Positions 5,153 to 53,152 of a stretch of 64,000 bases of DNA are shown piece by piece. The stretch lies in IMG/VR virus record IMGVR_UViG_3300005330_000014, positions 144,234 through 208,233 of that record. One strand, 5' to 3'. This DNA comes from a virus (taxonomy: Duplodnaviria > Caudoviricetes). A program made the translations under genes and the position numbers. Positions within the stretch are counted from its first letter, which is position 1. The number at the start of each line of letters is the position of its first letter. The notes below the pieces were generated by a model, which saw only the letters and a program-made list of their open reading frames with translations, did not search any database and was not told where the DNA came from.

Positions 5153-5752
5153 ATGGGAAGTTTATCTTACTTCAATCTCAATGATTATGTTAATCAGTAT
5201 AATCTAAATGGATTTCTTGAAACGGGTTTGGGACACGGGCATGGGATTCAATATGCTACTACTTGCAACTTTGAAATTTGTTATTCAATTGAAATATCTA
5301 AAGAAGTAATTCAACGATATCACAGGATGTATGGTAATAATTCAAAAATTAATATTATACAAGGAACTAGCAAATTTGGATTACAGCATGTATTTGAACA
5401 TGATTCCAATAAACAATATTTAATCTTTTTGGATGCCCATTTCCCGGCGGCTGATTTAGGTTTTGCAGGTTTTAATGATGAAAAGAATGACTCTCTTAAG
5501 TATCCCCTGCTTGACGAATTAAAAATAATTAAAAGCCGCGCGGATAAAGGTTATAAAGACGTTATAATTGTCGATGACTTAATGTTTTATTCAAACGAGA
5601 TTTTCCCAGATTCTCATATTAAAAGCTATTTTAAAATTGAGCCGCCAAAAGACAATAACTGCTTAGATAAAATCATGAGTTATTTTGATAAAACTCACAA
5701 AGCAGAATTGGTTAAACAGTTTAGTGGTTTTGGGATTTTTACACCTAATTAA
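5153..5752 (+). CDS. SAM-dependent methyltransferase-like
   Basis: FLETGLGHG motif I, SIEIS, IFLDAHF, IIVDD; start moved to ATG 5153. Confidence 0.6.
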   Translation: MGSLSYFNLNDYVNQYNLNGFLETGLGHGHGIQYATTCNFEICYSIEISKEVIQRYHRMYGNNSKINIIQGTSKFGLQHVFEHDSNKQYLIFLDAHFPAADLGFAGFNDEKNDSLKYPLLDELKIIKSRADKGYKDVIIVDDLMFYSNEIFPDSHIKSYFKIEPPKDNNCLDKIMSYFDKTHKAELVKQFSGFGIFTPN

Positions 5753-5753
5753 T

Positions 5754-6569
5754 ATGAAAATAGCAGGATGGAATTTCGGATTGTTTGGTGATTTAGTTAT
5801 GAATACTACATTAGCCAAAACTTTTAAAACTCATAACCCAGATAGTAATTTAATTTTTTGTGTTGGACGCAAATATTCTGCAATTTTACCTTTATTTTAT
5901 AATCATCCTTGCATAGATGGATTTCACGTATGGGAAGGTTGTGATGATTGGCCGACCAATAATGATAGTAAATATATAGAGTCTGGGCGATTTGATAAAG
6001 TATATTCCGCGTGCCCTCAACATAAACGGCAAGATTGGTATAAATACAATCATTATATTGAAGAAGTGCATGATATGAACGATTTCCCTCCACCTGTCGA
6101 TATGCAATGTCATTTAGATAAATGGTTTCAAACAGAAGAAAGAAGTCAAAAACTAATAACAACTTCTTTAGTTTCTGGAAATGATCCGCTTGGGCGCGCA
6201 CTTGATTCTAATCAAATACTAAGCTTACACAAAGATATTGAAAAGTTAGGATATAAAGTGGTTAGGCTGGATACCAAACAATGCCCAACATTAGAAAATG
6301 ATTATCCTGCTTCCAAACTTAGTTTATTAGACGCGGTAAAGTTATTACTAACTTCTAAACTACATTTAACAGTTGACACTTCTTATTCGTGGATCGGTTC
6401 AAGTTATAGTCATCCAGTTTTATCTCTACATGGAATTAATTATCCAGATATGGATATTGAGCATGTGAAAAGTCACGTTCCCTTTAATCCAAATGCGCGA
6501 GCTATAATTTCAAACAGTGTCAAGGAAATAAAAAATCAATCTATTATTGATGTTATCAAATCTTTCTAA
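5754..6569 (+). CDS. Glycosyltransferase family 9-like (heptosyltransferase fold)
   Basis: GLFGDLVMNT N-terminus, LHLTVDTSYSWIG..YSHP C-terminus; start moved to ATG 5754. Confidence 0.7.
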   Translation: MKIAGWNFGLFGDLVMNTTLAKTFKTHNPDSNLIFCVGRKYSAILPLFYNHPCIDGFHVWEGCDDWPTNNDSKYIESGRFDKVYSACPQHKRQDWYKYNHYIEEVHDMNDFPPPVDMQCHLDKWFQTEERSQKLITTSLVSGNDPLGRALDSNQILSLHKDIEKLGYKVVRLDTKQCPTLENDYPASKLSLLDAVKLLLTSKLHLTVDTSYSWIGSSYSHPVLSLHGINYPDMDIEHVKSHVPFNPNARAIISNSVKEIKNQSIIDVIKSF

Positions 6570-6577
6570 ATTATATA
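6569..6577 (+). promoter_or_regulatory. AATTATATA motif
   Basis: Intergenic, 9 nt before ATG 6586. Confidence 0.4.
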
Positions 6578-6585
6578 GATAAAGA

Positions 6586-7083
6586 ATGAGTAACACTGAA
6601 GTTCATTTTAGTTCAAAATCTAACGAATGGGAAACCCCTAAATATGTTTTTAATTATTTAGACAATGAGTTCAATTTTACTCTGGACGCAGCAGCGACAA
6701 AAGATAATTGGTTGATTTCTGATTACTTTACTCCTGAAGACGATGCTCTTACAAAAGATTGGTCGGCATATAAATCAATTTGGTGTAATCCTCCTTATGG
6801 CAGGTTAATAAGTAAGTTTATTCAAAAAGGTTATGAAGAATCTTTGAAAGGATGTACTGTTGTTTTCCTAATCCCGGCCCGCGTGGATACTAAATGGTGG
6901 CACGAATATTGTTCAAAAGGTGAAGTTAGATTTATAAAAGGTAGATTGAGTTTTAACAACAGATCATTTCCGTCGTGGCGCGAAGATGGAAGTCATTTAA
7001 AATCCCCGGCACCCTTTCCGTGCGCCGTTGTTATTTTCGGCAACTCACCATCAACTTCCTATGTCACTATTCCAAAACCTTAA
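6586..7083 (+). CDS. Phage DNA N6-adenine methyltransferase (Dam family)
   Basis: EWETP, FTLDAAA, WCNPPYG, LIPARVDT, GRLSF, APFP. Confidence 0.9.
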   Translation: MSNTEVHFSSKSNEWETPKYVFNYLDNEFNFTLDAAATKDNWLISDYFTPEDDALTKDWSAYKSIWCNPPYGRLISKFIQKGYEESLKGCTVVFLIPARVDTKWWHEYCSKGEVRFIKGRLSFNNRSFPSWREDGSHLKSPAPFPCAVVIFGNSPSTSYVTIPKP

Positions 7084-7099
7084 ACAACTAATTTTCAAT

Positions 7100-8156
7100 A
7101 TGATTCATGCAAAACGTCCCCGGGTTTTATTCATTTTAAAAAAAAGAAATAATCAATGGGGGCCGCATGATGGATACAGTGCTTGCGGTGGATTTAGTTC
7201 GGGATTGTATAATTCTGCTAATTTCGTTAATGAAATGCTACGAGAAAATAATATCGAATCCAATATTGTTGAGGTATTTGACGGACATTGTATTGATAAA
7301 GAAGTTCATACTTTTCAACCCACTCATGTAATTTTAGAAGCAATTGTTTTTCCTCCTGAGAAGTTTCAAATTTTAACTAAACTTCATCCAAAAATTAAAT
7401 GGATTATTCGTAACCATAGCGAAGTTCCTTTTCTAGCAAATGAGGGGAACGGGATAGATTGGATGCTGAAATATATTAAATATCCAAATGTTTATATTTC
7501 AAATAATTCAAAAAATATCAATACTGATTTTATGGATTTGGTTGGATATTTGGGGTGCCCACCGGATAAAGTTGTTTATTTACCCAACTATTATCATCCA
7601 AAAAGATCATACAAAACATGTCCATCGGCACGGGGAAGAGTTGCATATTGCCTGTCTAGGGGCAATCCGTCCGTTGAAAAATCAAGTCATTCAAGCAGTG
7701 GCCGCAATTGAGTTTGCAGAGAAAATTAATAAACCATTAAGATTTCATGTTAACGGAACAAGAGTCGAGGGTAATGGTGAGCCAGTTCTTAAAAATCTCA
7801 GATTACTATTTACTCATTTTCCGAAGCATAAGTTGATTGAACATCCTTGGCGTCCTCATAATGAGTTTTTAGAACTTATTGGGAAGATGGATATTTCAAT
7901 GCAGGTATCTTTTAGTGAGACGTTCAATATAATTACTGCCGATGCCGTTTCAATGGGTATTCCAATTGTTGTATCCCCTGAAATTAAATGGGTGGATTAT
8001 ATGTCACATGCCAATCCAAACGACACAGACAGTATAGTAAACAAATTAAATGCGGCATATGGCAACTACTATCTCCCCACAGTAAATAAACATTTGCTTA
8101 AACAATACTCTAAGAAAAGTAAAGATATTTGGTTAGATTTTCTAAAAATAAAATGA
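7100..8156 (+). pseudogene. GT-B (GT4-like) glycosyltransferase split by a +1 frameshift (programmed, mutational or assembly error)
   Basis: N-half in the frame of 7028..7711 and C-half (GAIRPLKN, SFSETFNIITADAVSMG) in the frame of 7488..8156; junction CCA AAA AGA at 7598-7606; fused product about 351 aa. Confidence 0.75.
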
Positions 8157-8515
8157 GTAAAACTATTCTTCCTTCGTTTTGTTTCCCTTGGGAAAATTCT
8201 TTTAAATCTGGCGATGTAATTTCATTAGAAAATGAAGTAACTAAAGAAGGAAAACATATTACCAATTATTACAAATTTATTGGAGTGTTGTCTTGTAAAG
8301 GACACATAAACAATAAACAAAAGCCGCGCGATTTGATTGTTTTGCAAAACATTAATACCAAAGATTTCATCGGCGGGCGGATTGGAGTTGATGTAGCTTT
8401 TAGTAAAAGTTTATTAAGATTTGTTACTATGTTCGACGGGATTTGCTATGGGAAAACTATAAGCGAATTGAAAAGAGTATATGGTTGGCAGGACGCACTA
8501 GAATTAGAAAAGTAA
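8153..8515 (+). CDS. Hypothetical protein
   Basis: ORF overlapping the upstream stop; start moved to ATG 8153. Confidence 0.55.
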   Translation: MSKTILPSFCFPWENSFKSGDVISLENEVTKEGKHITNYYKFIGVLSCKGHINNKQKPRDLIVLQNINTKDFIGGRIGVDVAFSKSLLRFVTMFDGICYGKTISELKRVYGWQDALELEK

Positions 8516-8521
8516 CTAATT

Positions 8522-9415
8522 ATGAAAATTAGAATATATGGTGAACCCAGTGATAATACAGTTTGGCCCCCGGCCTATTTACCAGCGATTAAGCGCGGAT
8601 TAATTGAACTGGGTCATGAGTTAGTTGATGACGTAAAATTAGCAGACGTATTATATTGTAATGATCCTAACGGGGAATACCAAATTTCACATGATACGAT
8701 AGATTTTAATAAGCCGAGTGTTCTTAATATTTTAGATATTCCAACGTATTTATCTGAATTTCATCTAAATAGAGTGCTTGGAAACTTAAATTGGAGAATT
8801 GAACAAGTTAATGCGGTTACTTCAATTTCTAAAACCGTTCAATCACAAATCAAAGAGATATTTGGAGTAGATAGTACGGTTGTATATCAGCCAACTAAAC
8901 CAATAACGCGATTGAATTTAGAAAAAAAAGAAAGTGGAGTAAAGTTTCTTTATGTTGGTCGCGCACATAGCCCAAACAAAAGATTTGATTTGGTCAAGAA
9001 TCTAATTCAAAAGTATTACGAAGAGGGCCAATTACTTATTATAGGATCAGAAAATCCTTGTTTTGGAACATATGTTGGCATGGTTAATGATGTAACTTTA
9101 AATAATTATTATAATCTTTGCGATTATGTTTTATTGCCAAGCTCATTTGAAGGAATTGGTTTAACTAGCATTGAAGCAATTTTAGCAGGCAAATATCCAA
9201 TACTAAGTAATGATTGCGCGGCTGCAATAGAATTTCTCCCCGAGTTCGCCTGCGACCCAAATCCGGCGGCTATGTTTGAAAAAATTCAAGAAATTGAAAA
9301 CAATAAATCCCATTATGACTGGTTAGTTCGACAGTATGATAGAAAGTACCGTGAACAATTCAATTATAAATCCGTGGCACAAAATATTGTCAATGTTTTA
9401 GAAAGCGTTATTTAA
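8522..9415 (+). CDS. Glycosyltransferase family 4 (GT-B)
   Basis: FLYVGR...NKR, LLPSSFEGIGLTSIEAILAG (E-x7-E). Confidence 0.85.
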   Translation: MKIRIYGEPSDNTVWPPAYLPAIKRGLIELGHELVDDVKLADVLYCNDPNGEYQISHDTIDFNKPSVLNILDIPTYLSEFHLNRVLGNLNWRIEQVNAVTSISKTVQSQIKEIFGVDSTVVYQPTKPITRLNLEKKESGVKFLYVGRAHSPNKRFDLVKNLIQKYYEEGQLLIIGSENPCFGTYVGMVNDVTLNNYYNLCDYVLLPSSFEGIGLTSIEAILAGKYPILSNDCAAAIEFLPEFACDPNPAAMFEKIQEIENNKSHYDWLVRQYDRKYREQFNYKSVAQNIVNVLESVI

Positions 9416-9416
9416 A

Positions 9417-10166
9417 ATGAAAATAGGAATTATTTTTACAGCGTTCAACTCAGCAGATTTAATCCTTAAATGCCTAGACCCGTGGATTAAAGTTAAAAAC
9501 ACTTTAAATCATCAGTTTGTTTATAGTTGCGTTTCAGTCCCTTTTGAAAAATTCAATATAGATAAAACTGACAATACAGTTGAATTAATTAAAACAACTG
9601 GCATCATGGATTTTTTGTTTGCCGATGGACAATTCAAATCTGAAATAGCCGCGCGGGGCATCTGTTTAGATTATTTAAAAGATAATGGGTGTGATTTTAT
9701 TTGGCAAGTTGATGCTGACGAATTTTATACAGTAGAAGATATAACAAATATAGTTAATTACATAGAAAAAGACAAATCTACATTCTGGTGGAAACTTTGT
9801 CTTAAAAACTATTTTCAAACAGACAAACAATATTTGGCTGAACCATTTACTCCGGCGCGGATTTTTAGAGTTAATCAACCTCCTTATAAATTGGGTGATT
9901 TCATTCAAGATAATGACATTTCGTTTTTTTATCAACGGGCAGAAATACCTAATTCATTTGTTAAAAGTAAAGTGATTCCACGCGAAGTAAATTGGACAAA
10001 GCACTTAAGTTGGTTAAACGGGTCGCGTAGTCGCGACAAAATTTTTTACCAAAATAAACGCTGGGGTAAGTCAAGTTATATATATGATGAGGTTACAGAA
10101 ACGGTAAACTTTAATCCTGACTATTATCCCGGTGGACAATTTCCTGAAGTAATACAAGAAATTTAA
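9417..10166 (+). CDS. Glycosyltransferase-like, GT-A fold
   Basis: IIFTAFNS, EIAARG, WQVDADEFY, KHLSW. Confidence 0.7.
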   Translation: MKIGIIFTAFNSADLILKCLDPWIKVKNTLNHQFVYSCVSVPFEKFNIDKTDNTVELIKTTGIMDFLFADGQFKSEIAARGICLDYLKDNGCDFIWQVDADEFYTVEDITNIVNYIEKDKSTFWWKLCLKNYFQTDKQYLAEPFTPARIFRVNQPPYKLGDFIQDNDISFFYQRAEIPNSFVKSKVIPREVNWTKHLSWLNGSRSRDKIFYQNKRWGKSSYIYDEVTETVNFNPDYYPGGQFPEVIQEI

Positions 10167-10168
10167 AT

Positions 10169-10672
10169 ATGATTATAGAAACACACAAATCCGACACCCA
10201 AGATCAGATTTTCTTTTACGAACAAGATTTTTATTGTTTATCTAATTTTTCTTCATTTACCTTACAGTGGAAAGGGCTTAGATTTGATACTTCGGAAGCC
10301 ACGTATCATTGGGAAAAATTCTTAACTTATGAATCCGCGTCTATTTCCGAATTAGAAGTTATTCGTAAAAAAATCTCACTTGCTCCATCCGCTCACGAAG
10401 CATTTCAATTATCTAGAAAATATAAAGAGTTAGTTCGCCCAGATTGGGACAATGTTAAAATTGATATTATGAAAGAAATTTTATGGGCGAAAGTAAAACA
10501 ACACGAATATGTGCGCCAGAAACTTGTATCATCTGGCAATAGACAATTAATTGAAGATTCGTGGCGGGACGATTTTTGGGGTTGGGGACCAAATAAAGAC
10601 GGCAAAAATATACTTGGTGAGTTATGGATGATGATACGAGGAGAATTAGATAATCAAAATTATATAACTTAA
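10169..10672 (+). CDS. NADAR (YbiA-like) N-glycosidase
   Basis: LSNFS, TSEATY, RPDWDNVK, AKVKQH, DDFWG, GKNILG. Confidence 0.9.
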   Translation: MIIETHKSDTQDQIFFYEQDFYCLSNFSSFTLQWKGLRFDTSEATYHWEKFLTYESASISELEVIRKKISLAPSAHEAFQLSRKYKELVRPDWDNVKIDIMKEILWAKVKQHEYVRQKLVSSGNRQLIEDSWRDDFWGWGPNKDGKNILGELWMMIRGELDNQNYIT

Positions 10673-10681
10673 ATATATAAT
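10658..10681 (+). promoter_or_regulatory. AATTATATA motif plus TATAAT
   Basis: AATTATATA 10658-10666 (overlaps the NADAR 3' end); TATAAT 10676-10681; ATG 10685. Confidence 0.35.
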
Positions 10682-10684
10682 ATA

Positions 10685-10855
10685 ATGACAGAATTTGATA
10701 AAGCTAAACAAGAATTTCTAGATAACTACCTTGAAGAAAAATTTCCCGGGGAATTAAAAGAGTTATACGGGGACATTGTTGGAATTTTAAAAGCTGGATT
10801 TGAAGCTGGAATTAGATTTGTCGAAGATTACGAAGATATCAGAAGAGATAATTAA
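10685..10855 (+). CDS. Small hypothetical protein (56 aa)
   Basis: ATG 10685 to TAA 10855, abutting the next ATG. Confidence 0.55.
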   Translation: MTEFDKAKQEFLDNYLEEKFPGELKELYGDIVGILKAGFEAGIRFVEDYEDIRRDN

Positions 10856-11176
10856 ATGACTGACGCCCAATTTGAGAAACAACGATTTGATATAGTCAAA
10901 AACTACTTTGATTATTACAATATTTTGTGTCTTGAAGAAGATTTAGGATTATCTATAAGCTCGTCTGCGCCCGGCTTATATCATGTTTTTACTACCAAAG
11001 ACGATATTCTGACTCATCAATATAGTATTTCAGACGCCAAACTAAAAGAAATCTCGAAAAGTCTTAAATTAATTACGATTAAAAATATTTTCATTAGCAC
11101 AAAATTAAAATCGTATGAAGATAAATTAATGAAGAGATACGAAAATAATCCGCTGGATTGGGAACAAAGTCACTAA
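10856..11176 (+). CDS. Hypothetical protein
   Basis: 106 aa packed ORF. Confidence 0.55.
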   Translation: MTDAQFEKQRFDIVKNYFDYYNILCLEEDLGLSISSSAPGLYHVFTTKDDILTHQYSISDAKLKEISKSLKLITIKNIFISTKLKSYEDKLMKRYENNPLDWEQSH

Positions 11177-11182
11177 GTTTTT

Positions 11183-12034
11183 ATGAAAGTTTGCATCTTA
11201 GGTGGTGGATTTATTGCTAAAAACCTTATCAAATATCTTGAAAAGCAAAAAGATATTAATATCTTAGCTGTTGGATATGAAGCTGTTAATTCGCACGCTT
11301 CAATTAGATTCGACATTAGAAATTCTGACAGTATTGAATTGTGTTTTATAAATGGTCCTTATAATATTATTATAAATTGTACGGGTATTTCCAATTTTTC
11401 TAGCTGCGAAGATAATAATAATTATTCTTTTGATGTAAATTGTCATGGACCCCTTAATATTTTAGACTATATCCATTGTGATTCTCATACCACTCGTTTT
11501 ATTAACTTAGGAAGCATTCGAGAATTTGATTCTGATTCGTGGTATGCGCGCACAAAAAAAATATCTAGAGAAATCGTTGGGTATTATCGTGAACAAAAAG
11601 GCATGTGGGCCGCGCAATTATATTTACCTAATATAGTAGGAAAAGAACAGGATGCCGCGCGATTTGTTGTCCCTAAAGTTATTGATTTTGTTGAAAATTT
11701 TGCTAAAAATCCGGCGGACTCAAAACTCAAATTAGGGAATCTAGATTCTACACTTAATTTAATTCATGTGGATACAGCCTGTGAACTTATCTGGCGCGCG
11801 GCTCAATCGCAAACCCCTATAGACTACTTACTTACAGGAGAAAAAATTTTGTTAAAAGATTTTGTAGTTAAAATATTTCAAAAATTTGGCATACAAGATT
11901 GGGAAAATTACGTTGAAATTGACCAGTCATTAGTTCGCCCGAACGATAATCCTTATTATATAGAATTAGTTAAACATGCTTTAAAAAGTAATGATACGGT
12001 TGATGACATTATTAATAAGCTATGTCAGGCTTAA
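11183..12034 (+). CDS. NAD-dependent sugar epimerase/dehydratase (GDP-mannose dehydratase-like)
   Basis: VCILGGGFIA Rossmann start, YARTK (YxxxK), KLGNLDS, VEIDQSLVRP. Confidence 0.75.
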   Translation: MKVCILGGGFIAKNLIKYLEKQKDINILAVGYEAVNSHASIRFDIRNSDSIELCFINGPYNIIINCTGISNFSSCEDNNNYSFDVNCHGPLNILDYIHCDSHTTRFINLGSIREFDSDSWYARTKKISREIVGYYREQKGMWAAQLYLPNIVGKEQDAARFVVPKVIDFVENFAKNPADSKLKLGNLDSTLNLIHVDTACELIWRAAQSQTPIDYLLTGEKILLKDFVVKIFQKFGIQDWENYVEIDQSLVRPNDNPYYIELVKHALKSNDTVDDIINKLCQA

Positions 12035-12789
12035 TCGGAGTTGAATGGCGCGGTGGCAACAAATTAGGAGATAGACTTTGCCGAATTTCTCTTTTCGAGA
12101 ATTATTACAAGAATACAGGCGATAAATTAATTGATTTGATTGGCATGGAATATACTAAGTATAATCCTTATGTTTTACAAATCTCTGATATTCACCCCAA
12201 TACTTTATCTAGAATTGAAAAGCGGTGCTTATGGAATTATCCGCCGCGTGCCGTTCCTTTTGATTCGTTTAAAACGATGGCGCACGAAGTTTGTGCCCGA
12301 TGGGATTTGCCAGTTTGTTATTTAAATAGGTCGCGCTTATATAAATACGAAGATTCGATTAAGTTTCCTAGAAGTTTAGTTATCAACACTACGGGGCGTG
12401 GACACGGCGCAATTCCCCTACATGTTATTAAACATATTCGAGAAGCTTATAAAAATTATACAATTATACAAATTGGTGGTTTGACTGATATTGACGCGGG
12501 CGCGGATTTAGATCGGCGCGGCTGTGATTTTTGGGAATCTGCTAAATACATGAGTGAATGTGAAATCGCTATCATTCCAGATAGTTTTTGTTATTGGCTT
12601 TCCAAGTGTTATAGAATGCATCGTAAAGTTATACTAACTAACTTATCCGCCGAGAATTGTGAAAAGTTCTTACCGCGCGGCTATCATATTGATAATTGGG
12701 AACAAGATTGGTGGCTAGAGTTAGATGCTGAATTTTACAATATTTACGAACAAGACTTTGGCATAACTAAATCCTATTTATCAATCTAA
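12022..12789 (+). CDS. GT9-like glycosyltransferase
   Basis: NKLGDRL, IIQIGG, IAIIPDSFCYWLSK. Confidence 0.55.
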   Translation: MSGLIGVEWRGGNKLGDRLCRISLFENYYKNTGDKLIDLIGMEYTKYNPYVLQISDIHPNTLSRIEKRCLWNYPPRAVPFDSFKTMAHEVCARWDLPVCYLNRSRLYKYEDSIKFPRSLVINTTGRGHGAIPLHVIKHIREAYKNYTIIQIGGLTDIDAGADLDRRGCDFWESAKYMSECEIAIIPDSFCYWLSKCYRMHRKVILTNLSAENCEKFLPRGYHIDNWEQDWWLELDAEFYNIYEQDFGITKSYLSI

Positions 12790-13142: not shown

Positions 13143-13146
13143 AGTA

Positions 13147-13890: not shown

Positions 13891-13898
13891 TAACAACT

Positions 13899-15035: not shown

Positions 15036-15036
15036 A

Positions 15037-15662: not shown

Positions 15663-15665
15663 ATA
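15657..15665 (+). promoter_or_regulatory. GTGTAAAT[AT] putative late promoter
   Basis: GTGTAAATA overlapping a stop codon, upstream of ATG 15694. Confidence 0.45.
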
Positions 15666-15693
15666 TTGATAGCTTTTTAAAATTTACGAAATT

Positions 15694-41244: not shown

Positions 41245-41246
41245 AT

Positions 41247-43267: not shown

Positions 43268-43276
43268 TTTTAAATT

Positions 43277-43950: not shown

Positions 43951-43951
43951 C

Positions 43952-45365: not shown

Positions 45366-45369
45366 GTTA

Positions 45370-45795
45370 ATGTTTCAAATTTTTAACCCGTTTAAATCAG
45401 TCACAAGAAATAGTGAAGTTTTAATCACTACTTGGGGCATCGCGCCCACGCACCGAATGGAAGAAGTAATTAAAAATGTTAGCCACGCGGCCAAGGTTAA
45501 ATTACTTGTTGGATTTAGTAAAGAAACACATGATTTAAAAAAACTGCATCAAACACTGATGTATTATAAAAGGTTGGGCTGGATTGTTAAAGCCATGCCC
45601 GGCTTTCATGCTAAAATTTGGTTAATTAATAATGATTGTTGGGTAGGATCGGCGAACTGGTGCCCGAATACTATTCATAATTACATGCATAGAACAAAAA
45701 TAACCACGCGAATTAGAAATTTTACAAATCTTCATTGGAAAAATTCATATAATGTAAATGAAACGACCAAACTTTGGTTGCTGGCACAAAAATAA
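45370..45795 (+). CDS. Phospholipase-D-fold nuclease (single HKD-like motif)
   Basis: FHAKIWLIN...VGSANW. Confidence 0.7.
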   Translation: MFQIFNPFKSVTRNSEVLITTWGIAPTHRMEEVIKNVSHAAKVKLLVGFSKETHDLKKLHQTLMYYKRLGWIVKAMPGFHAKIWLINNDCWVGSANWCPNTIHNYMHRTKITTRIRNFTNLHWKNSYNVNETTKLWLLAQK

Positions 45796-45804
45796 TCCTA
45801 ATTC

Positions 45805-46272
45805 ATGAATAAACTAACTTTAGAAGAATATCAAAGTCTATACTCTGATAAAATAACAAAAGGAGAATACGACAGAATCATAGATAAAATAGATAAGAGA
45901 TTTCTCTATATTATGGAAACTATCTGCACTAGACTTAACTGGTATGATTATGATAACGGCTGGAAAGAAACTAACGGTCATTTTGAACCAAATAAGTATC
46001 ATGCTAATAGAAATTCCTATATTAATTTTGACGGAGAATATACGCTGCCTCCGCCCTATAATACCTGCCCAGACATTCCAATTAAATGGCTATGGGAGGA
46101 TTTTGAAGAAAACTTTAAGAAAGAAGTATCTGATTTTAAAACCCAAAAAGAGCATGAAAAGATTAAACTAAAAAATCAAAGGATAGAATTAAAAGCTAAA
46201 AAAGTTGCGATGAAACGATTGATTCAATCCAAGCTTTCAAAAGAAGAATTAAAGTTTATAAAATTCAAATAG
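45805..46272 (+). CDS. Hypothetical protein
   Basis: 155 aa. Confidence 0.55.
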   Translation: MNKLTLEEYQSLYSDKITKGEYDRIIDKIDKRFLYIMETICTRLNWYDYDNGWKETNGHFEPNKYHANRNSYINFDGEYTLPPPYNTCPDIPIKWLWEDFEENFKKEVSDFKTQKEHEKIKLKNQRIELKAKKVAMKRLIQSKLSKEELKFIKFK

Positions 46273-46274
46273 TT

Positions 46275-46961
46275 ATGAAAGCTAATTGGCAAGAGTTGCA
46301 AACTCAATTTTGGAAAGATGGGTATTGTATACTTGATAATTTAATTCCAAAGGATTTAGTAGAATATTGGGCTGCAATTGCTTTGGATTTATCTACTAAA
46401 CTAACTCGACAAGGGGTTAAAAAAATAGAAAAGCAATTTGATGCCGCCGATTTAGAAACACGCGACGCTGCTGGAATTTATAGTTTAGTTAGTATTCCGG
46501 GGTATGTTGCTTTTTGTGATTTTGAAAATTTAAAGATATATTATCAAAATTTAGCTAATTTTTTAAGTTTATTCACTGGATTAGATATTGTTTTAAGCGA
46601 AGATATAGAAAGTGCGGTAACTGTTATGGTTTATCCGCCTCCCGCCGGACAAATGACGGCACACTACGATACAAACCCAATCACTGTATTATTATATTTA
46701 ACTGACAATCAAGATGGTGGTACTGAATTATACCCACTAACTGCTCGCCGACCTACCACTTTAACTACAATTGATGAATTTATTGCTGATCCAATTGTTA
46801 TTCTACCAAAAGTTGGTCGCATAGTATTATTCCAAGGGCAAAAAATTTGGCATAAAGCATTACCTGTAACTAAAACTACAAAAATTAGTTCAGCATGGAA
46901 TTATTATATTAAAGGAGAAAATTGGCGACCCAAAGGGGTGTCGGAAAGATTGTATAAATAA
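46275..46961 (+). CDS. 2OG-Fe(II) dioxygenase
   Basis: HYD, VLLYL, GG, G.IVLF, WH...PV, K.S. Confidence 0.8.
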   Translation: MKANWQELQTQFWKDGYCILDNLIPKDLVEYWAAIALDLSTKLTRQGVKKIEKQFDAADLETRDAAGIYSLVSIPGYVAFCDFENLKIYYQNLANFLSLFTGLDIVLSEDIESAVTVMVYPPPAGQMTAHYDTNPITVLLYLTDNQDGGTELYPLTARRPTTLTTIDEFIADPIVILPKVGRIVLFQGQKIWHKALPVTKTTKISSAWNYYIKGENWRPKGVSERLYK

Positions 46962-46962
46962 C

Positions 46963-47697
46963 ATGGAAGCAGAAGTATGGAAGTCTATTGATGGATATGA
47001 AGGTATTTATGAAATTTCTTCATTTGGTAATGTAAGAAGCTATGCTCGTGAAACTGTATGCTTAATTAAGCCTAGGATTAACCAAGGTTATTTTATTTTA
47101 GGCTTATGGAATAAAGGCAAATGTAAAACCTCTAAAATCCATAGGTTAGTAGCATTACACTTTATTGAAAACCCCGACAACAAACCTCAAGTAAATCATA
47201 TCGACGGCAATAAACTAAATAATCATTTAGATAATTTGGAATGGGTAACACCACAAGAAAATAGTGCCCATGCCTCAAAATTAAAATTAGTAGCTTACGG
47301 CACTAGAAATGCAGCAGCAAAAATAACTGACGAAGATGTTGTTAGTATTAGAAAAATGTATGATTCCGGGGAATTTACCCAAAATCAACTATCAAATAAG
47401 TTCAATCTATCACAAGGAATTATAGGGAAAATTATTAATGGTCTGTTATGGGAGCACGTTCCATATAGCGGAGAACGTTCATTAGAACGGATTAGCTGTA
47501 ATCAATCTAATTATACTAGAAATTTACGCGGAGATAATAACTATTGGTCTAAAATCACAGAATCCCAAGTTAAAGAAATAAGAGAAATGTATAATAATGG
47601 GGATATGACTTACAAACAGATAGCAGATTTATACGGCGTTACCCCTCAAAATATTCGTTCTATTATTATTAGAAAAACATGGAAAAATCTAGAATGA
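46963..47697 (+). mobile_element. Free-standing NUMOD4-HNH homing endonuclease with two C-terminal HTH repeats
   Basis: WKSIDGYEGIYEISSFG, HRLVA..F, VNHIDGNK.NN..DNLEW; KITxxxVxxIRxMY repeated twice. Confidence 0.85.
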
Positions 47698-47942
47698 AAG
47701 AATACAATCTCAAAATACCTGAAAACACTGATTCCCGCCGCCGCGCGCCCGTCGGTAAAATTACCTTCACTTACGATAAAAGTTTTCAGAATAATTGGCA
47801 AAAATATCCAAAATTCGTGAAAACAACCATTTCAGTAATCATATATGAGAATGAAGACGTTAATAAACTGATAAGTAATTTGAAAAAGGATTATAAAAAT
47901 GCGCGGGAATTTGAAGTCATTTTAAATAATGAAACTAAATAA
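47679..47942 (+). CDS. Hypothetical protein
   Basis: Likely start ATG 47694. Confidence 0.5.
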   Translation: MEKSRMKEYNLKIPENTDSRRRAPVGKITFTYDKSFQNNWQKYPKFVKTTISVIIYENEDVNKLISNLKKDYKNAREFEVILNNETK

Positions 47943-48144
47943 TACTCAAATTAAACAACTGGCAATTTTAGGATATTTTCTAGTAGAATCTGAACCTCAA
48001 CGCTTCATCGCGGGCACTCAATTTATTGGCGGTTATGATTATGTGTCCGCCGAGGCTGCACTTAAAAGATTAGAAGAGGCGGAGCTTGTTAATCGCATCT
48101 GGAGAAGAAATTTCGGAAAAGATTTGTATAATTTAGAAAAGTAG
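47929..48144 (+). CDS. Hypothetical protein
   Basis: 71 aa. Confidence 0.5.
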   Translation: MKLNNTQIKQLAILGYFLVESEPQRFIAGTQFIGGYDYVSAEAALKRLEEAELVNRIWRRNFGKDLYNLEK

Positions 48145-48153
48145 AATCATATA
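48145..48153 (+). promoter_or_regulatory. AATCATATA motif heading a leader of about 95 nt
   Basis: Directly after the stop at 48144. Confidence 0.45.
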
Positions 48154-48248
48154 ACTCAAATACAAGATTTAAGCGCCCAATGTTTCAATGACGAAACACG
48201 GCATTAAAAACAAAAAACGCCTAACGGCAAAATAAAAAAACAAATAGT

Positions 48249-48443
48249 ATGAAGAATAGTAAGACAATCGCCGCCCGCCTCGCCTCAACTAAGGGTCGTA
48301 TCGTCGGCATTACCACGAAGTCGCGGAAATTCAATGGTCAGATTCGTTCCGTTACTCCTAGTTACGTAACTATGTATGATCGTAATGCCCAAAAGCAATT
48401 CAAATTTGCTCTAAGTTCCGTGGTTTCAGTTACTGGTGTATAA
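48249..48443 (+). CDS. Small basic protein, possible Sm/Hfq-like fold
   Basis: helix-GRIVGIT..RKFNGQI.SV...V......QFKFALSSVVSV; about 48% GC in 48301-48360. Confidence 0.5.
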   Translation: MKNSKTIAARLASTKGRIVGITTKSRKFNGQIRSVTPSYVTMYDRNAQKQFKFALSSVVSVTGV

Positions 48444-48452
48444 GTTAGTTAG

Positions 48453-48556
48453 TTTTTCCGGCCTCGGTTTTCAAACTTGGGCTAGAAAATGAGGAAGAAG
48501 TAATATCCCGTAGCAATACGGTGGGTGGATAACCTCAAAAAACAAGCCACCCAACC
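48453..48556 (+). ncRNA. Candidate structured RNA
   Basis: CCGTA-GCAA-TACGG GNRA hairpin nested in TATCC/GGATA and GAGG/CCTC; alternative pairing TGGGTGG/CCACCCA. Confidence 0.45.
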
Positions 48557-48590
48557 ACTTTCAAATAAATCAATAAAATCAACTAAAAAC

Positions 48591-48601
48591 AATTATATAA
48601 T
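48591..48601 (+). promoter_or_regulatory. AATTATATA motif with TATAAT; leaderless geometry
   Basis: TATAAT 48596-48601; ATG 48607. Confidence 0.55.
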
Positions 48602-48606
48602 TAATA

Positions 48607-48852
48607 ATGACAAACCTCAATAATATCATGAAGAATCCGGCGGATAATACTAGAGAAAAAGCTGACCGAATTTTAACACTAACTGAAGAGTTACATGACC
48701 TGCAAAATAAGCGAAAGAGTGTTGCGGCGGCTTTCACAACTCGGATTAAAGAAGTAAAACAAGACATTTTAGATGTTCTAAATGATGAACAGACCGCCGA
48801 GGAAATCGTCAAGAATGTTCATAATGAACATGATTTGGAAGTAATTAAGTAA
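48607..48852 (+). CDS. Coiled-coil hypothetical protein
   Basis: 81 aa heptad pattern. Confidence 0.55.
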   Translation: MTNLNNIMKNPADNTREKADRILTLTEELHDLQNKRKSVAAAFTTRIKEVKQDILDVLNDEQTAEEIVKNVHNEHDLEVIK

Positions 48853-48876
48853 ATTTAACAATTAAATAACAAAAAT

Positions 48877-49560
48877 ATGGCTTTAGGTAACAAAAACAAC
48901 AACGACAATAGTAAGCTTCTAATTTTAAAAATTCGGACACAAGACCTTGATAAAAAAGCGATTGATCCAATTTTTCAAGTTAATGAAAAAGTAGATGGTA
49001 AATGGGTTTCAACCGATACCACCACGGCGGTAGAAGGACAACTAACTCGGGCGGAAGTCAAAGAGGGTGAATATGAAGGGCAAAAAACCTATAATATTTC
49101 GCTATATCTAAAAGATACTGAAGCCGCCGAGACTTATCTTGTCGATCTTAAGTTAAATATGTTAACGCGTGGACTTCTAAATAGTGTTCTTAATTTAACT
49201 AAATTTGATGAAGTTAAGTTTGGTCTTTATACTGGTAAGAATGGCTATCCAAATGTTGCCGTCCGCCAGCACGGGGAAATGGTTAAATGGAAGTACTCAT
49301 TAGATGAAATGCCCACGCCCGATGAAGTAATGTTTAAGGGTAAGAAAATGCGGGATTATAGTGCGGTAGATGAATTCTTTATTGAAAAAATTAAGGAATT
49401 GGCCGCGCGAGTAAATGGTGCCGCGCCTGCAAAATCAAAAGATAAAACAGTTAATACTACTAAGGTAGTTAAATCTGAGGCGAAAGCAGAAAGTCCGGCG
49501 GATTCTGATATGTTTGACGATAAGGAATCTGATAGCACTGATGATGATAGTTTGCTATAA
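48877..49560 (+). CDS. Probable single-stranded DNA-binding protein
   Basis: Beta-rich OB-like core plus acidic tail ending DDDSLL. Confidence 0.55.
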   Translation: MALGNKNNNDNSKLLILKIRTQDLDKKAIDPIFQVNEKVDGKWVSTDTTTAVEGQLTRAEVKEGEYEGQKTYNISLYLKDTEAAETYLVDLKLNMLTRGLLNSVLNLTKFDEVKFGLYTGKNGYPNVAVRQHGEMVKWKYSLDEMPTPDEVMFKGKKMRDYSAVDEFFIEKIKELAARVNGAAPAKSKDKTVNTTKVVKSEAKAESPADSDMFDDKESDSTDDDSLL

Positions 49561-49775
49561 TGAAAAACAGAGTATCAATTACATTATCTGATAATTTAGA
49601 TAATCACGAAGCTTTTCTTAAAGTATTAGAAAATGATCTAGAAACCGAAATTAAATTCGGAGATTTCTCTTTAGGAAAATTTAAATTAGATTATCATAAT
49701 ACCTCTTCGATTAGAGGAAAACTTGCAGAAATTTCTTTAGGATTCAAAGAATGCCCAAAAAACGCTGTGGTGTAA
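49560..49775 (+). CDS. Hypothetical protein
   Basis: 71 aa. Confidence 0.5.
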   Translation: MKNRVSITLSDNLDNHEAFLKVLENDLETEIKFGDFSLGKFKLDYHNTSSIRGKLAEISLGFKECPKNAVV

Positions 49776-51670
49776 TTTCGTCTTCTCCATTAGTACGCAC
49801 GGGTTTTAGTAATAATGCCCGTGCGATTTTGCCGTTATTGTATGCAAATAATAAGTACGAAATCTTCCTTTTAGCTCAGGGGAGCGATGACCGCGATCCT
49901 ACTCTGCAAAAAATGCCGTGGAAAACTCGCGGAACGATTCGCCCGGGGGAATTTAATGAAGATTTATTTGGTCGTGATCCGAATTATCAAAGATTAGTGG
50001 CATATGGAAATCTTTCAGTCCAAAATTGGATCATTGAAAATAAGTTAGATTGTGTTATTCATATTGAAGATATTTGGAGTTCATCTGAAGAACATTATCT
50101 TAATGCTAAATGGTGGCCTTATTTCAAAGATAATTTCCTCCAATGGAGCACGGCGGATTCATTACCAATTTTAAATAACTATAAAACTTGGGCAGAAAAA
50201 TGTTCTAACGTTTGGTTATGGGCGACTTTTGGGGTTAATGCTTTACATAAAGAAAATAAAGAAAAGTATGGACATGTAAAATGTGTCCACGGAGTTTTGG
50301 ATACGACCGAATACGCTCCTATTTCTTTTCTTAAGAAGAACGAATTAAGAGATAAATTCAATATTGATCGTGATGCCGTTGTTTTCTTCAAACTCGGACG
50401 CTCACAATTAAGAAAGTTATATCCCTCAGTTTTAGAGGCTTACGCATCATTCAAAAAACAATATCCTCAATATAAAACTAAACTTCATTTTCATTGCAGC
50501 TTTTCGGAAGGTTGGCCTTATAATGATCTAATCAAGTATTATAACATTGATAAAAATGATGTTTTAGCTACTTATTTTTGCCGTTCATGTGGCGATTATG
50601 AAATCAAACCTTGGGTTGGCGAAGATCAAGATTGTCGATTCTGTAATAATAAGAAAAGTCAAATCACTGCTGGCGTAACAAGTTCAATTTCAAATAAAGA
50701 TTTATCTGATATATATGGAATTTCAGATGCTTGTATTAGCGCATTCACTTCGGGCGGCTTAGAATTTCATAATGTCCAATCATTATTATGCGGACTTCCT
50801 TTACTGTCTTCGGATTATTCATCAGGAGAAGATTTCGTTAAGAATGATTTCGTATTTAAATTAGACGGCACACATACTTATGAGGCAGGTACAGGCTTCA
50901 TTAAGCACGTTCCCAACATAAATACAATTGTTAAATATATGCGGAAGATTTGTGAAATGAATCCGCGCGAACGACAAAATATTGGCAAACAAGGACGGGA
51001 ATGGGCATTAAAAACTTTTGAGCCATTCGCTGCTATTCAAGAGCTAGAGAATTTTATTGATAATTGTCCGCCGATTACTTGGGATTACGTTTTGCCTCCC
51101 GAAAATCTAAAGAATCCCGGCGCACAAGTTCCTGATTTAGATAATCCTAAAGAATGGGTTAGAAGTCTATATAAATTAATTTTAAATATGGACATGCCGG
51201 ATGACGATACTGGCTTAAATGGTTGGGTAACTTCTTTAGCTAATGGAATGTCCAAGACTGAAATTGTTAACTACTTTAGAAAAGTTGCCAACGAAGAAAA
51301 CGAAAAGATTAACCAGAATAATCCCAAACACATTACTTTAGAAAGTTTATTCCCTAGAATTGATAATAAAAAGAATGTTCTTTTAGTTTTGCCGCAGTCA
51401 CTTGGCGATCACGTAATTTTAACAGGATTACTACCGGGAATTTACGAAAAGTACCCTTTAGATAGTCATACGATATACTTAGCCGCCGATCCTAAATTCT
51501 TTGAGGTTTATGAAGGTAATACTAACATTAAATTAGTTCCATTTGCGCTTATTATGAGGAACGAGATGGCAATGTCCGGTTCGGGCGAACACGGACCAAT
51601 TGATTATTTCATTGATGTCGCGCCCAGCACGCAAGTTCATTTAAACTATTTAACTAATAAATATGACTAA
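49751..51670 (+). CDS. Multidomain glycosyltransferase: GT4 with Zn-ribbon insert, DUF4214-like region and GT9 N-half
   Basis: TGFSNNA, FFKLGRSQLRK, TSGGLEFHNVQSLLCG, CRSC/CRFC, LYKLIL..D.GL..W, PQSLGDHV. Confidence 0.75.
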   Translation: MPKKRCGVISSSPLVRTGFSNNARAILPLLYANNKYEIFLLAQGSDDRDPTLQKMPWKTRGTIRPGEFNEDLFGRDPNYQRLVAYGNLSVQNWIIENKLDCVIHIEDIWSSSEEHYLNAKWWPYFKDNFLQWSTADSLPILNNYKTWAEKCSNVWLWATFGVNALHKENKEKYGHVKCVHGVLDTTEYAPISFLKKNELRDKFNIDRDAVVFFKLGRSQLRKLYPSVLEAYASFKKQYPQYKTKLHFHCSFSEGWPYNDLIKYYNIDKNDVLATYFCRSCGDYEIKPWVGEDQDCRFCNNKKSQITAGVTSSISNKDLSDIYGISDACISAFTSGGLEFHNVQSLLCGLPLLSSDYSSGEDFVKNDFVFKLDGTHTYEAGTGFIKHVPNINTIVKYMRKICEMNPRERQNIGKQGREWALKTFEPFAAIQELENFIDNCPPITWDYVLPPENLKNPGAQVPDLDNPKEWVRSLYKLILNMDMPDDDTGLNGWVTSLANGMSKTEIVNYFRKVANEENEKINQNNPKHITLESLFPRIDNKKNVLLVLPQSLGDHVILTGLLPGIYEKYPLDSHTIYLAADPKFFEVYEGNTNIKLVPFALIMRNEMAMSGSGEHGPIDYFIDVAPSTQVHLNYLTNKYD

Positions 51671-51938
51671 CTCCGATAAAATAAAACTAAAATCAGTATT
51701 AGAATATTGTTTGGTAAATTTAAAACATCCTGAAACTCCAGTTGGTAGTATATATGGATTAAACCTCACAACGGATGGATACTACCCACCACCAATTCCT
51801 ACTTACGATAGTTTAATAAATGACGCAAATGCCACTTATGAAAAAATGAAAGCACGGGCTGAAAAAATCAAACAATACGAAGATTGTCTTGTCAATATTC
51901 AATTACTTTTGCTAGATTTGAATTATATAGTTGAATAA
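51663..51938 (+). CDS. Hypothetical protein
   Basis: 91 aa. Confidence 0.5.
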   Translation: MTNSDKIKLKSVLEYCLVNLKHPETPVGSIYGLNLTTDGYYPPPIPTYDSLINDANATYEKMKARAEKIKQYEDCLVNIQLLLLDLNYIVE

Positions 51939-53152
51939 TGAAGCTAGCAGAAACATATGCTAACAATTGTTCAATTGATAAAATTGGACGACCCGATTTA
52001 CCTACTCAATACTTTCCTCTTCCGGTAGATAAGTATATAACTATCCAAAATAGTTCGGGAATGCCCGCGAAAGACTATTCTTTATGGCAGGATGTAGTTA
52101 ATTTAATCCACCCATACTTAGAAAAAGAAGGAATTAGTATTGTTCAAATTGGACGCGGAGAAATTCAACCGTTAAATCGTACAATTAACTTGCTTAATCA
52201 AACTAATTTCGCCCAAACGGTTTATTTGCTTCATAATTCACTCCTTCATTGCGGGAATGACAGTTTCGCTAGCCACGCGTGCGGCGATACAACGCCTTGT
52301 ATAATCGTTTTCGGCAGCACTTCGGCACAATGTCATGCCCCCGCTGTTACGCACCCTCAGAGCATTTTTACAGAAAGTCATCGAAACGGTAATAATCCAA
52401 GTTACCAAGCTCAAGAACAACCAAAATCTATTAATAAGATTCCAGTTGAAAAAGTAGCCGCCGATATTCTTAAAGTTTTGGGTATATCTCACCAAATTAA
52501 TCAAAAAACCATACTCGTTGGCGACCAATACCCTCAAATTGTAATTGAAATAGTTCCTGACGGAATTGTAAATCCTCAATCTTTGCCGCCGGGCGCAATC
52601 AACCTTCGGGCGGATTTATTCTTTGATTTAAACAATATTATTCAAAATCTTCAATTACGACAATACGTATTGTCATTAAATCAACAAATTGACATTAATA
52701 TACTTAAACAACTCAAGCCAAATATTCCTTTATTAATTTATGAAATTGATGAAGAAACTGATGTAGATTATTTACTGTCTATAGTCCGCGCGGGAATTCA
52801 GTTGCAATTAACAACTAAAGTAGATGAAGAAACGTTGAAAGGATTGAAATTGAAGTATTTAGACCTTCCTTTGATCGTGCGCCGAGTCGATACGCCACTT
52901 TCTCAAGTTCTAGAACAAATTAAATCATATAATAATATAGACAATCTAAATAAAATAGAATTAGATAAGCCCTTAAGATATCAATCAAGCAGACTACTTT
53001 TAAGTAATAACAAACAATACCTTTCATTGGCTGACTGGAAATTAGATCGTCCAGTAGAAAATATGGAATGTTCCTCAGTTGCAGATTTAGATAATCAAGA
53101 TTTTTTGAACGAAGTAAATTATTTTAGGATTTATGAGACAATTGAAGTTTAG
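51938..53152 (+). CDS. GT9 C-half-like protein with C-terminal extension
   Basis: AKDY..W, IVQIG, LHCGNDSFASH, VFGST. Confidence 0.65.
   Translation: MKLAETYANNCSIDKIGRPDLPTQYFPLPVDKYITIQNSSGMPAKDYSLWQDVVNLIHPYLEKEGISIVQIGRGEIQPLNRTINLLNQTNFAQTVYLLHNSLLHCGNDSFASHACGDTTPCIIVFGSTSAQCHAPAVTHPQSIFTESHRNGNNPSYQAQEQPKSINKIPVEKVAADILKVLGISHQINQKTILVGDQYPQIVIEIVPDGIVNPQSLPPGAINLRADLFFDLNNIIQNLQLRQYVLSLNQQIDINILKQLKPNIPLLIYEIDEETDVDYLLSIVRAGIQLQLTTKVDEETLKGLKLKYLDLPLIVRRVDTPLSQVLEQIKSYNNIDNLNKIELDKPLRYQSSRLLLSNNKQYLSLADWKLDRPVENMECSSVADLDNQDFLNEVNYFRIYETIEV

Follow-up and report, generated by a model that had tools for sequence, protein, structure and literature searches.

The DNA considered here is a window of 64,000 nucleotides, the final 64 kb (record positions 144234-208233) of a 208,233-bp virus record in IMG/VR (IMGVR_UViG_3300005330_000014, Caudoviricetes), and the question that it raises is why a phage genome of 34.8% GC should contain so many exact copies of one GC-only palindromic octamer, CCGCGCGG. 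The genome is 95% complete by CheckV, a crude gene call divides it into 355 open reading frames (ORFs; 90% coding), and the metagenomes of origin are from the rhizosphere. A DNA and protein search of a phage collection finds no close cultured relative, and the terminase is only 27% identical to those of the closest cultured phages. The answer that we develop is that CCGCGCGG is a symptom, and not the unit, of a real and unusual compositional phenomenon. On balance, we lean to the view that the octamer is a by-product of two superimposed DNA-level forces, a clustering of G and C and a purging of palindromes, and that it is not a dedicated site.

The copies in the window are the following, with the amino acids read across the octamer given for those in genes.

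5536..5543: CCGCGCGG in the ORF at 5120-5752, read xxC CGC GCG G (S-R-A)
9649..9656: CCGCGCGG in the ORF at 9417-10166, read xCC GCG CGG (A-A-R)
12673..12680: CCGCGCGG in the ORF at 12022-12789, read CCG CGC GGx (P-R-G)
14981..14988: CCGCGCGG in the RecA-like gene at 13851-15035 (D-R-A)
16317..16324: CCGCGCGG in the ORF at 16014-16400 (P-R-G)
17214..17221: CCGCGCGG in the DnaB-like helicase gene at 16405-17841 (V-R-A)
19256..19263: CCGCGCGG in the primase-like gene at 18912-19799 (S-R-A)
20908..20915: CCGCGCGG as GCCGCGCGGC, intergenic, between the ORF end at 20839 and the ORF start at 20940
24959..24966: CCGCGCGG, intergenic, in the gap 24724-25234
26614..26621: CCGCGCGG as GGCCGCGCGGC, intergenic; the tRNA-Met gene (26420-26494) and a terminator-like hairpin, GCCCCGG/GCCGGGGC, lie directly upstream of it
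29847..29854: CCGCGCGG in the ORF at 29581-30120 (D-R-A)
32505..32512: CCGCGCGG as GGCCGCGCGGCC in the GH16 gene at 32438-33238 (A-A-R)
32761..32768: CCGCGCGG in the same GH16 gene (V-R-A)
39089..39096: CCGCGCGG in dnaE at 36493-39909 (A-A-R)
39958..39965: CCGCGCGG in the small ORF at 39920-40138 (S-R-A)
44809..44816: CCGCGCGG in the GMP reductase gene at 44355-45365 (A-A-R)
52786..52793: CCGCGCGG in the ORF at 51938-53152 (V-R-A)

A first-pass annotation, made from the letters alone, had listed these seventeen positions, all of which match. It had also placed the copies in three frames and in intergenic DNA, as is found (14 within ORFs in all three frames, 3 between genes), and had noticed no exact copy in 54-64 kb, which is borne out. 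The sequences flanking the copies are diverse.

Is the excess real? The whole genome holds 57 copies (0.27/kb) where about 0.2 would be expected, and dinucleotide-preserving shuffles of the window give a mean of 0.16 copies and a maximum of 2. Genome-wide, 48 copies are in genes (7 read as P-R-G, 17 as x-A-R and 24 as x-R-A) and 9 are in spacers. When synonymous codons are shuffled within genes, 4.2 +/- 1.9 coding copies are obtained (maximum 10), far below the 48 observed, so the excess is real and is not due to protein sequence or codon usage. Contigs of two sequencing runs from other studies span the copies at 32505, 32761 and 39958 with zero differences, and the relatives described below, assembled by Logan, JGI and ENA, have the same property. 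This agreement of independent runs and assemblers disposes of the assembly or sequencing bias that the annotation had entertained. The enrichment of CCGCGCGG, on the other hand, survives only in part: it withstands the codon shuffle and vanishes under Markov models of order 5 and 6. Counted on both strands there are 114 occurrences, for which orders 0-4 predict 0.3, 1.4, 5.9, 19.6 and 27.8, and orders 5 and 6 yield 93.9 and 116.7. The octamer is therefore fully predicted by its hexamers, and the signal lies at the hexamer level and below, not in the octamer as such.

The strongest outliers of the genome are CGCG, the most over-represented tetramer (z = 19.5), and CCGCGC/GCGCGG, with 324 occurrences versus 187 predicted (z = 15). 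Against the codon shuffle, dozens of GC words are raised 5- to 12-fold, among them the non-palindromic CGCGCGGC (89 vs 7.1, 12.5-fold), AGCCGCGC (66 vs 6.1, 10.8-fold) and CCCGGCGG (33 vs 3.0, 11-fold), as well as AGCCGCCG (43 vs 4.8), and every GC-only hexamer that occurs at all is up about 2- to 5-fold. In number of sites the non-palindromic CGCGCGGC exceeds the palindrome, 106 versus 57. The idea of one iterated site is thus not sustained: dozens of non-palindromic words are equally enriched, and the purging of palindromes has left CCGCGCGG nearly alone among GC palindromes. The annotation's aside that clusters such as CGCG, GGCGG and CCCGG also look frequent was correct and turns out to be the main point.

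We therefore consider G and C without regard to the word that they spell, writing S for G/C and W for A/T. Pure G/C runs of at least 7 bases number 835 in the genome, where its own frequency of S-to-S transitions predicts about 256, and 761 in coding sequence versus 327 under synonymous shuffling. Their density, 4.0/kb, is 13 times that of T4. The clusters are 7-13 bp in size, with a pure cluster of 7-8 bp about every 250 bp. For the window the figures are:

1..64000: 229 pure G/C runs of at least 7 bases (3.6/kb), versus 66 expected from a geometric model

The clustering is cooperative. At four-fold degenerate sites the probability of G/C rises from 0.16 between A/T neighbours to 0.77 between G/C runs of at least 4 bases; in intergenic DNA it rises from 0.24 to 0.78 with G/C flanks; and two-fold sites follow the same dependence as far as their codons permit. 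The probability of G/C between three-S flanks, P(S|SSS_SSS), is 0.77 here and 0.0-0.36 in T4, Bacillus phage G and P-SSM2, which at 31-35% GC have 0-0.3 runs/kb and no cooperativity. Orientation is balanced: CCGCGC occurs 161 times on the + strand and GCGCGG 163 times, with 151 sense and 142 antisense occurrences and no positional switch along the genome. Equal strength in coding DNA and spacers, together with equal orientations, shows that the effect arises at the level of DNA, symmetrically on the two strands, and is not translational; the annotation's inference that the constraint acts on DNA and not on protein holds for the same reasons, copies in all frames included.

Translational selection, in which the tRNAs of a GC-richer host would favour G/C-ending Ala, Gly, Pro and Arg codons, is accordingly a reading that we already disfavour and regard as very improbable. 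Third codon positions are 41% G/C after SS codon prefixes and 21-25% otherwise, as it would predict. The seven tRNA genes of the phage (Gly-UCC, Asn-GUU, Leu-UAA, Cys-GCA, Lys-UUU, Arg-UCU and Met-CAU; six at genome 37730, 40634, 51433, 62239, 64985 and 80934, and tRNA-Met in the window) serve A/T-rich codons or Met, and homologues of the phage's methyltransferase, discussed below, are found in phages of 54-66% GC; the two observations hint, no more, at a host that is GC-richer than the phage. Nevertheless, with the codon prefix held constant, the probability of S at the third position moves from 0.26 to 0.67 depending on the next codon, and spacers are as cooperative as genes.

The clustering also takes no notice of palindromy. 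In SS_SS contexts the middle base is W in 21-42% of cases in all ten classes except CCWGG, whether the context is palindromic or not. Avoidance of SSWSS restriction sites was considered as a cause of the clustering and rejected: only CCWGG is purged, and non-palindromic SS_SS contexts prefer S equally. Few runs have an inverted partner within 40 nt with which a hairpin or terminator could form (18/761 coding, 12/74 intergenic), and homopolymer runs of C or G are disfavoured throughout the clade described below.

How are the clusters placed in genes? In a codon alignment of dnaE they lie on strings of Ser, Ala, Gly, Pro and Arg codons, without indels, and the same residues often carry A/T-ending codons in a relative. 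The codons orthologous to the copy at 39089, for example, read tCG GCC CGa, GCG GCG CGa and gct gcc aag in the dnaE of relatives. Of 54 cluster blocks in dnaE, 21 are unique to one genome. If a potential site is defined as two or more adjacent Ala, Gly, Pro or Arg(CGN) codons able to form a run of at least 7, there are 1,898 potential sites, of which 36% are realised (the share is 27% with two codons and 56% with three), and the realised clusters are spaced as a random draw, with a coefficient of variation (CV) of 1.07 versus 1.02 +/- 0.04 in the null. The content and adjacency of Ala, Gly, Pro and Arg in DnaE do not differ between phages with and without the clustering; the force is thus too weak to reshape proteins.

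These data bear on a mixed group of explanations: a Chi-like signal, an uptake-type signal, a mobile GC-cluster element, or an artefact of sequencing or assembly. A short GC-rich word at about 0.3/kb is what such signals can look like, and some intergenic copies have a longer stretch in common, GCCGCGCGGCCAA, which is found at three places within 48-63 kb of the genome. A Chi-like signal would be strongly skewed in orientation, in contrast to the balance found here, and a mobile element would leave indels and longer conserved flanks, where these clusters sit at aligned codons without indels and seldom have inverted partners; the artefact is contradicted by the independent runs and assemblers. 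As a group we consider these explanations highly improbable. The three copies with shared flanks (genome 48459, 52445 and 63211, all intergenic) have in common the longer string (G/T)CCGCGCGGCCAA; they lie in a tRNA- and small-RNA-rich region at 45-64 kb, where they may belong to a repeated transcription unit instead of being independent clusters.

The next question is whether other phages have the same clustering. Homologues of DnaE led to the metagenomic relatives L001-L005, at 71, 63, 53 and 40% identity, and a search with the methyltransferase led to L109 and L110; about 20 kb was analysed per positive relative for L001-L004. The clustering is common to these six related phages (contigs L001-L005, L109 and L110), which have 31-37% GC, 2.7-6.1 runs/kb and P(S|SSS_SSS) of 0.74-0.83. 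Two of the contigs, L004 (JGI 3300014208) and L005 (ENA ERZ27249449), are the same phage, assembled independently with 1 difference in 16,858 bases; a 224-kb contig of this phage also exists. By comparison, 80 IMG/VR relatives with DnaE identities of 36-41% are without the trait (0.04-3.7 runs/kb, P(S|SSS_SSS) 0.13-0.69), and the few among them with more than 2 runs/kb are the GC-richest (41-49% GC). These negatives have RecA-like, DnaB, primase, exonuclease and DnaE genes in common with the phage. Two of the negatives are complete (170 and 151 kb; 35.5 and 34.3% GC) and have 0.86 and 0.74 runs/kb. In the DnaE tree the positives stand on one side of a branch with 100% support, with a long-branch caveat for L005. 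The tree and the negatives together identify the clustering as a derived character of a small clade of soil phages, all AT-rich.

The second regularity is one of missing words. Among the 64 palindromic hexamers, 20 have no copy in 208 kb against expectations of 5-74. The absentees with the highest expected counts are CCGCGG (74), TTCGAA (38), GCCGGC (31), GGCGCC (27), CGGCCG (24) and TCCGGA (19), followed by CGATCG (17), GGATCC (16), CCATGG (16), CTGCAG (14), GGGCCC (13) and nine more. The pentamer CCWGG, of EcoRII/Dcm type, is also absent genome-wide versus 300 occurrences of CCSGG, and cluster-negative relatives have the reverse (CCWGG 71-84, CCSGG 7-24). The tetramers GATC and GTAC occur at about 0.55 times their expected frequency. 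The purged set varies among the relatives: L001+L109 keeps CCGCGG, and L003 keeps CGGCCG and GCCGGC (its 22.7 kb hold 22 copies of CGGCCG and 13 of CCGCGG). Words absent against substantial expectation, in a set that differs between relatives, are the pattern of restriction avoidance, and the palindromes are presumably purged by restriction pressure. The purging of GC-rich restriction sites would be in keeping with the GC-richer host hinted at above.

The purging is selective as well. It has removed 5 of the 8 GC-only palindromic hexamers. Among GC-rich palindromic hexamers, 4 of the 5 that contain CGCG are spared, versus 3 of 27 others (Fisher p = 0.0044); observed and expected counts of hexamers containing CGCG are 168/149 for CGCGCG, 66/118 for GCGCGC, 23/28 for TCGCGA and 16/12 for ACGCGT, while CCGCGG is purged despite its CGCG. 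The consequence for octamers is simple. Of the 16 GC-only palindromic octamers, CCGCGCGG alone is frequent (57), the others having 0-4 copies, and each of these other 15 contains a purged hexamer or GCGCGC (0.56 of expectation). A G added to the left of CGCGCG, or a C to its right, produces GCGCGC, which makes C...G the favoured G/C flank; 57 of the 168 CGCGCG sites have it.

The relatives show what happens when the purged set is different. In the sister phage L001+L109, CCGCGG has 56 copies in 37 kb (1.50/kb) and is the top word within runs (50 versus 25.4 expected when C and G are resampled), whereas CCGCGCGG is at 0.05/kb. In the genomes from which CCGCGG has been purged (this one, L002, L004 and L110) the top word is CCGCGC and CCGCGCGG is at 0.15-0.43/kb; L110, with no CCGCGG, is at 0.43/kb, against 0 and 0.27/kb in the present genome. 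Orthologous dnaE codons illustrate the exchange: tCC GCG Gag and aCC GCG Gac in L001 correspond to tCC GCG Cag and aCC GCC Gat here.

How much of the excess do the two regularities explain? About 50-fold of the roughly 300-fold naive enrichment of CCGCGCGG comes from the general clustering of G and C. With the proteins and the S/W pattern held fixed and only C versus G redrawn at four-fold S sites, 12.9 coding copies are expected; with the 20 absent hexamers forbidden in addition, the expectation is 16.1 (sd 3.5, maximum 26), where 48 are observed. Clustering, coding and purging together thus lift the expectation from about 0.15 to about 16.

The mechanism that we propose combines two forces. 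By the first, evident as a pattern, a G/C beside another G/C is kept or created and an isolated G/C lost, in this phage and its near relatives, so that clusters form wherever proteins allow (at adjacent Ala, Gly, Pro and Arg codons, whose synonymous flanks are drawn towards G/C) and to the same degree in spacers, on either strand. Its cause would most likely be a neutral drive, a clade-specific, context-dependent bias of substitution or mismatch repair, with a possible connection to nucleotide-pool or methylation genes that the clade has of its own. By the second, palindromic hexamers and CCWGG are purged, presumably by restriction, with palindromes built on CGCG spared. The words allowed within clusters are then based on CGCG, and CCGCGCGG, as C+CGCGCG+G, is the sole GC-only palindromic octamer free of a purged hexamer and of GCGCGC; where CCGCGG is not purged, as in the sister phage, that word takes over the role of CCGCGCGG. 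A diffuse process at the level of substitutions is favoured by the equal strength at spacers and synonymous sites, the strand symmetry, the random spacing, the partial realisation, the lack of an imprint on proteins and the indifference to palindromy.

Several observations weigh against this account. Even after the strictest null a threefold residual is left (48 versus 16.1), so there is some preference for CCGCG/CGCG as words, one that the whole clade retains. Whether a potential site is realised is correlated between genomes at orthologous positions, with an odds ratio (OR) of 3.35 (p = 1e-4), even though four-fold sites are close to saturation; by our estimate, heterogeneity in site length accounts for an OR of only about 1.5. 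Variants of CCGCGCGG with one deviating base number 84 at positions 1/8, 28 at 2/7, 9 at 3/6 and 25 at 4/5, a bias to the outer positions like that of the cyanobacterial motif considered below; in part this bias follows from the presence of the purged CCGCGG within CCCCGCGG. An orphan methyltransferase accompanies the clustering. No gene for a biased repair was identified, the genome having neither a Vsr (PF03852) nor a C5 methylase (PF00145). Finally, three other runs that cover 26-46 kb of the window are of the same phage and contain a single difference, which provides no substitution spectrum, so mutation bias, repair drive and weak selection are not separated.

Some of these points are what one would expect if the octamer were the product of an enzyme that recognises it, and the methyltransferase is the candidate:

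22425..23660, + strand: orphan beta-class N6/N4 DNA methyltransferase with a TSPPYF motif IV, a DPFFGAGTT motif I and a Cys-rich insert

The gene has no partner nuclease, and a homologue in JGI is annotated as cytosine-N4-specific. It is found in 4 of 4 cluster-positive phages in which the region is visible. Its homologues in L109, in L110 and on the 224-kb contig of the L004-type phage are 59-62% identical, in the last case against 40% for DnaE, whereas 7 cluster-negative relatives, of which two are complete, gave no match to it. This presence and absence, however, amounts to a single phylogenetic event. Homologues of 46-50% identity occur in unrelated phages (L111-L113; PolA-type, T4-like), which at 54-66% GC are uninformative on clustering, and the family is widespread, with 8,000 matches at E < 1e-10.

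According to this explanation the orphan N4-type enzyme would mark CGCG words, with CCGCGCGG or CCGCGG as the cognate, and methyl-dependent repair or protection against the deamination of N4-methylcytosine would create or keep them. It is suited by the rank of CGCG among tetramers, the escape of CGCG palindromes from purging, the outer-position bias of one-off variants, the residual over the strictest null and the rise of a palindrome, CCGCGG, to the top of the words within runs in L001+L109, and the correlation at orthologous sites helps to keep it alive. It is poorly suited by the purging of CCGCGG here in spite of its CGCG, by the 3.4- to 3.8-fold rise of words that lack CGCG (CCGCCG, CGCCCG, CCCGGC, CCCCGG), by the palindromy-blind clustering, by the non-palindromic CGCGCGGC outnumbering the palindrome and by irregular spacing. 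We consider this explanation rather unlikely.

The model for such an explanation is HIP1, GCGATCGC, a highly iterated palindrome of cyanobacterial chromosomes that has alternates (Elhai 2015, PMC4390886; Xu et al. 2018, PMC5861425). Like HIP1, CCGCGCGG is palindromic, GC-rich and 8 bp long and recurs at about 0.3-1/kb in spacers and in every reading frame, its one-off variants deviate mostly at the first or last base, an orphan methyltransferase resides in the carrier genomes, and related lineages use another palindrome. Unlike HIP1, it is one of dozens of equally enriched GC words and does not stand as a single palindromic octamer above all models and its non-palindromic neighbours, and its excess is mostly clustering plus purging. 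The spacing is not quasi-periodic but random and site conservation is slight, with the unique dnaE blocks set beside a weak positional correlation; the carrier is a phage and not a chromosome; and the methyltransferase is here a candidate reader of the word. The HIP1 word itself cannot occur in this phage, since its core CGATCG is absent. The likeness to HIP1 drawn by the annotation therefore extends to density, outer-position variants and orphan methyltransferase, but not to a single iterated site or to even spacing.

Another explanation is that the G/C block itself is selected, either as a short GC clamp or as the target of a protein that reads DNA shape: a block of about 8 bp every few hundred bases, spelled in any allowed word, for which duplex stability, packaging, or the control of recombination or replication would be the purpose. 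The length of the clusters speaks for it. In every positive genome the continuation ratio of runs peaks at 0.79 from 7 to 8 bases and drops to 0.45 from 8 to 9, and it is flat in the negatives; the equal strength in coding and non-coding DNA, the disfavoured homopolymers and the correlation at orthologous sites are also in keeping with such blocks. The shoulder at 8, however, may be a coding effect, since two SSN codons with one flanking base on each side make 8, and intergenic runs are few (27, 24 and 9). The random spacing, the realisation of little more than a third of potential sites and the unaffected composition of DnaE are at odds with a requirement for blocks, and no candidate binding protein was identified; nothing specifically supports the dispersed binding site that the annotation had offered among its inferences. 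We regard this explanation as quite unlikely.

A wider proposal draws on more than one of these ideas. An undescribed process of the clade would build G/C clusters of about 8 bp about every 250 bp in a vocabulary free of restriction sites, by a methylation-coupled or context-specific repair drive or in response to a requirement for blocks, and CCGCGCGG and CCGCGG would be counterparts of HIP written by the N4-type methyltransferase. This can be held only tentatively, and we think it possible rather than probable.

If the clustering is a drive, the nucleotide pool is another place to search for its determinant, and the window has three genes of interest:

30136..30657, + strand: MazG/MazZ-like (d)GTP diphosphohydrolase (PF18909), in positives of the clade and absent from 4 negatives
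41522-42052: DHFR
44355-45365: GMP reductase, also in some negatives

The PF18909 enzyme is, by inference only, a candidate modifier of the deoxynucleotide pool. Together with GMP reductase and DHFR it could lower guanine and raise thymine pools and so possibly contribute to the AT-richness. PurZ (PF00709) was not found in the genome, which thus gives no evidence of a 2-aminoadenine genome. For all these candidates the link to clustering is only correlative. Only 46 of the 355 crude gene calls have a homologue in the two complete cluster-negative genomes, so gene presence and absence cannot single out the determinant. A separate observation concerns a 141-aa protein at 45370-45795 (+) with weak matches to PLD nucleases (PLDc_2 and the N-terminal PLD domain of the NgoFVII restriction endonuclease, E ~1e-3). 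It is conserved in L001, L002 and L004, was not seen near dnaE in negatives, and may be a Nuc-like nuclease.

The two regularities can be compared with known systems. Avoidance of palindromic restriction sites in phage genomes is a classical finding, reportedly described by Sharp in 1986, by Karlin, and by Rocha and co-workers in 2001. As in such phages, many 6-bp palindromes and CCWGG are absent here, in a set that differs between relatives; unlike plain avoidance, the purging acts in a genome that accumulates G/C runs and so yields an iterated palindrome, not only missing words. Very-short-patch repair has left footprints in the oligonucleotide usage of E. coli, as Merkl and co-workers and Bhagwat and McClelland reportedly described in 1992. 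The process that we favour would resemble it as a context-specific T:G to C:G repair bias that raises words at synonymous sites, the word itself having no function. It would differ from it in lacking a Vsr or C5 methylase gene, in having G/C flanks and not one pentamer as its context, and in the far larger effect. Yeast mitochondrial genomes have GC clusters that are mobile insertions of 30-50 bp, mostly intergenic. In both cases short G/C-rich islands are scattered in a very AT-rich genome, but those of the phage are 7-13 bp and arise by substitution at aligned codons without indels. In the literature we found no paper that treats CCGCGCGG as a genomic motif, and the term 'GC clusters' yields yeast mitochondria only. 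As far as we have searched it, the combination of classical palindrome avoidance with a strong, clade-limited clustering of G/C at synonymous sites is undescribed.

The debate about hyper-abundant short words, HIP1 among them, is thirty years old, and it usually asks what the word does. Here is a worked case in which most of an apparent enrichment of about 300-fold splits into word-blind G/C clustering and a restriction-avoidance filter, and in which related phages swap their iterated palindrome according to the site that is purged; it is a caution for motif hunting in phage genomes. The clade also constitutes a natural experiment, with sister phages that differ in their purged sets and close outgroups that have the same replisome without the clustering. 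The cause of the clustering, be it a repair bias, a nucleotide-pool effect or methylation, would add something new to what is known of how phage genomes evolve.

Two further features of the genome were noticed. In the spacers, AACTAA/TTAGTT and TAACTA rank with the hexamers in greatest excess (e.g., 561 versus 475 by the Markov model, and 377 versus 235 by codon shuffle). Ahead of genes these words appear repeatedly in the form of TTAGTTAGTTA-like strings, probably a promoter or translation-initiation signal of the phage. A homing-endonuclease-like gene with NUMOD4, HNH_3 and HTH domains lies at 46963-47697 (+) of the window, between a 2OG-Fe(II) oxygenase gene and small ORFs, and in the relatives L001, L003 and L109 genes of the LAGLIDADG and GIY-YIG types are lodged within dnaE and dnaB or next to them.

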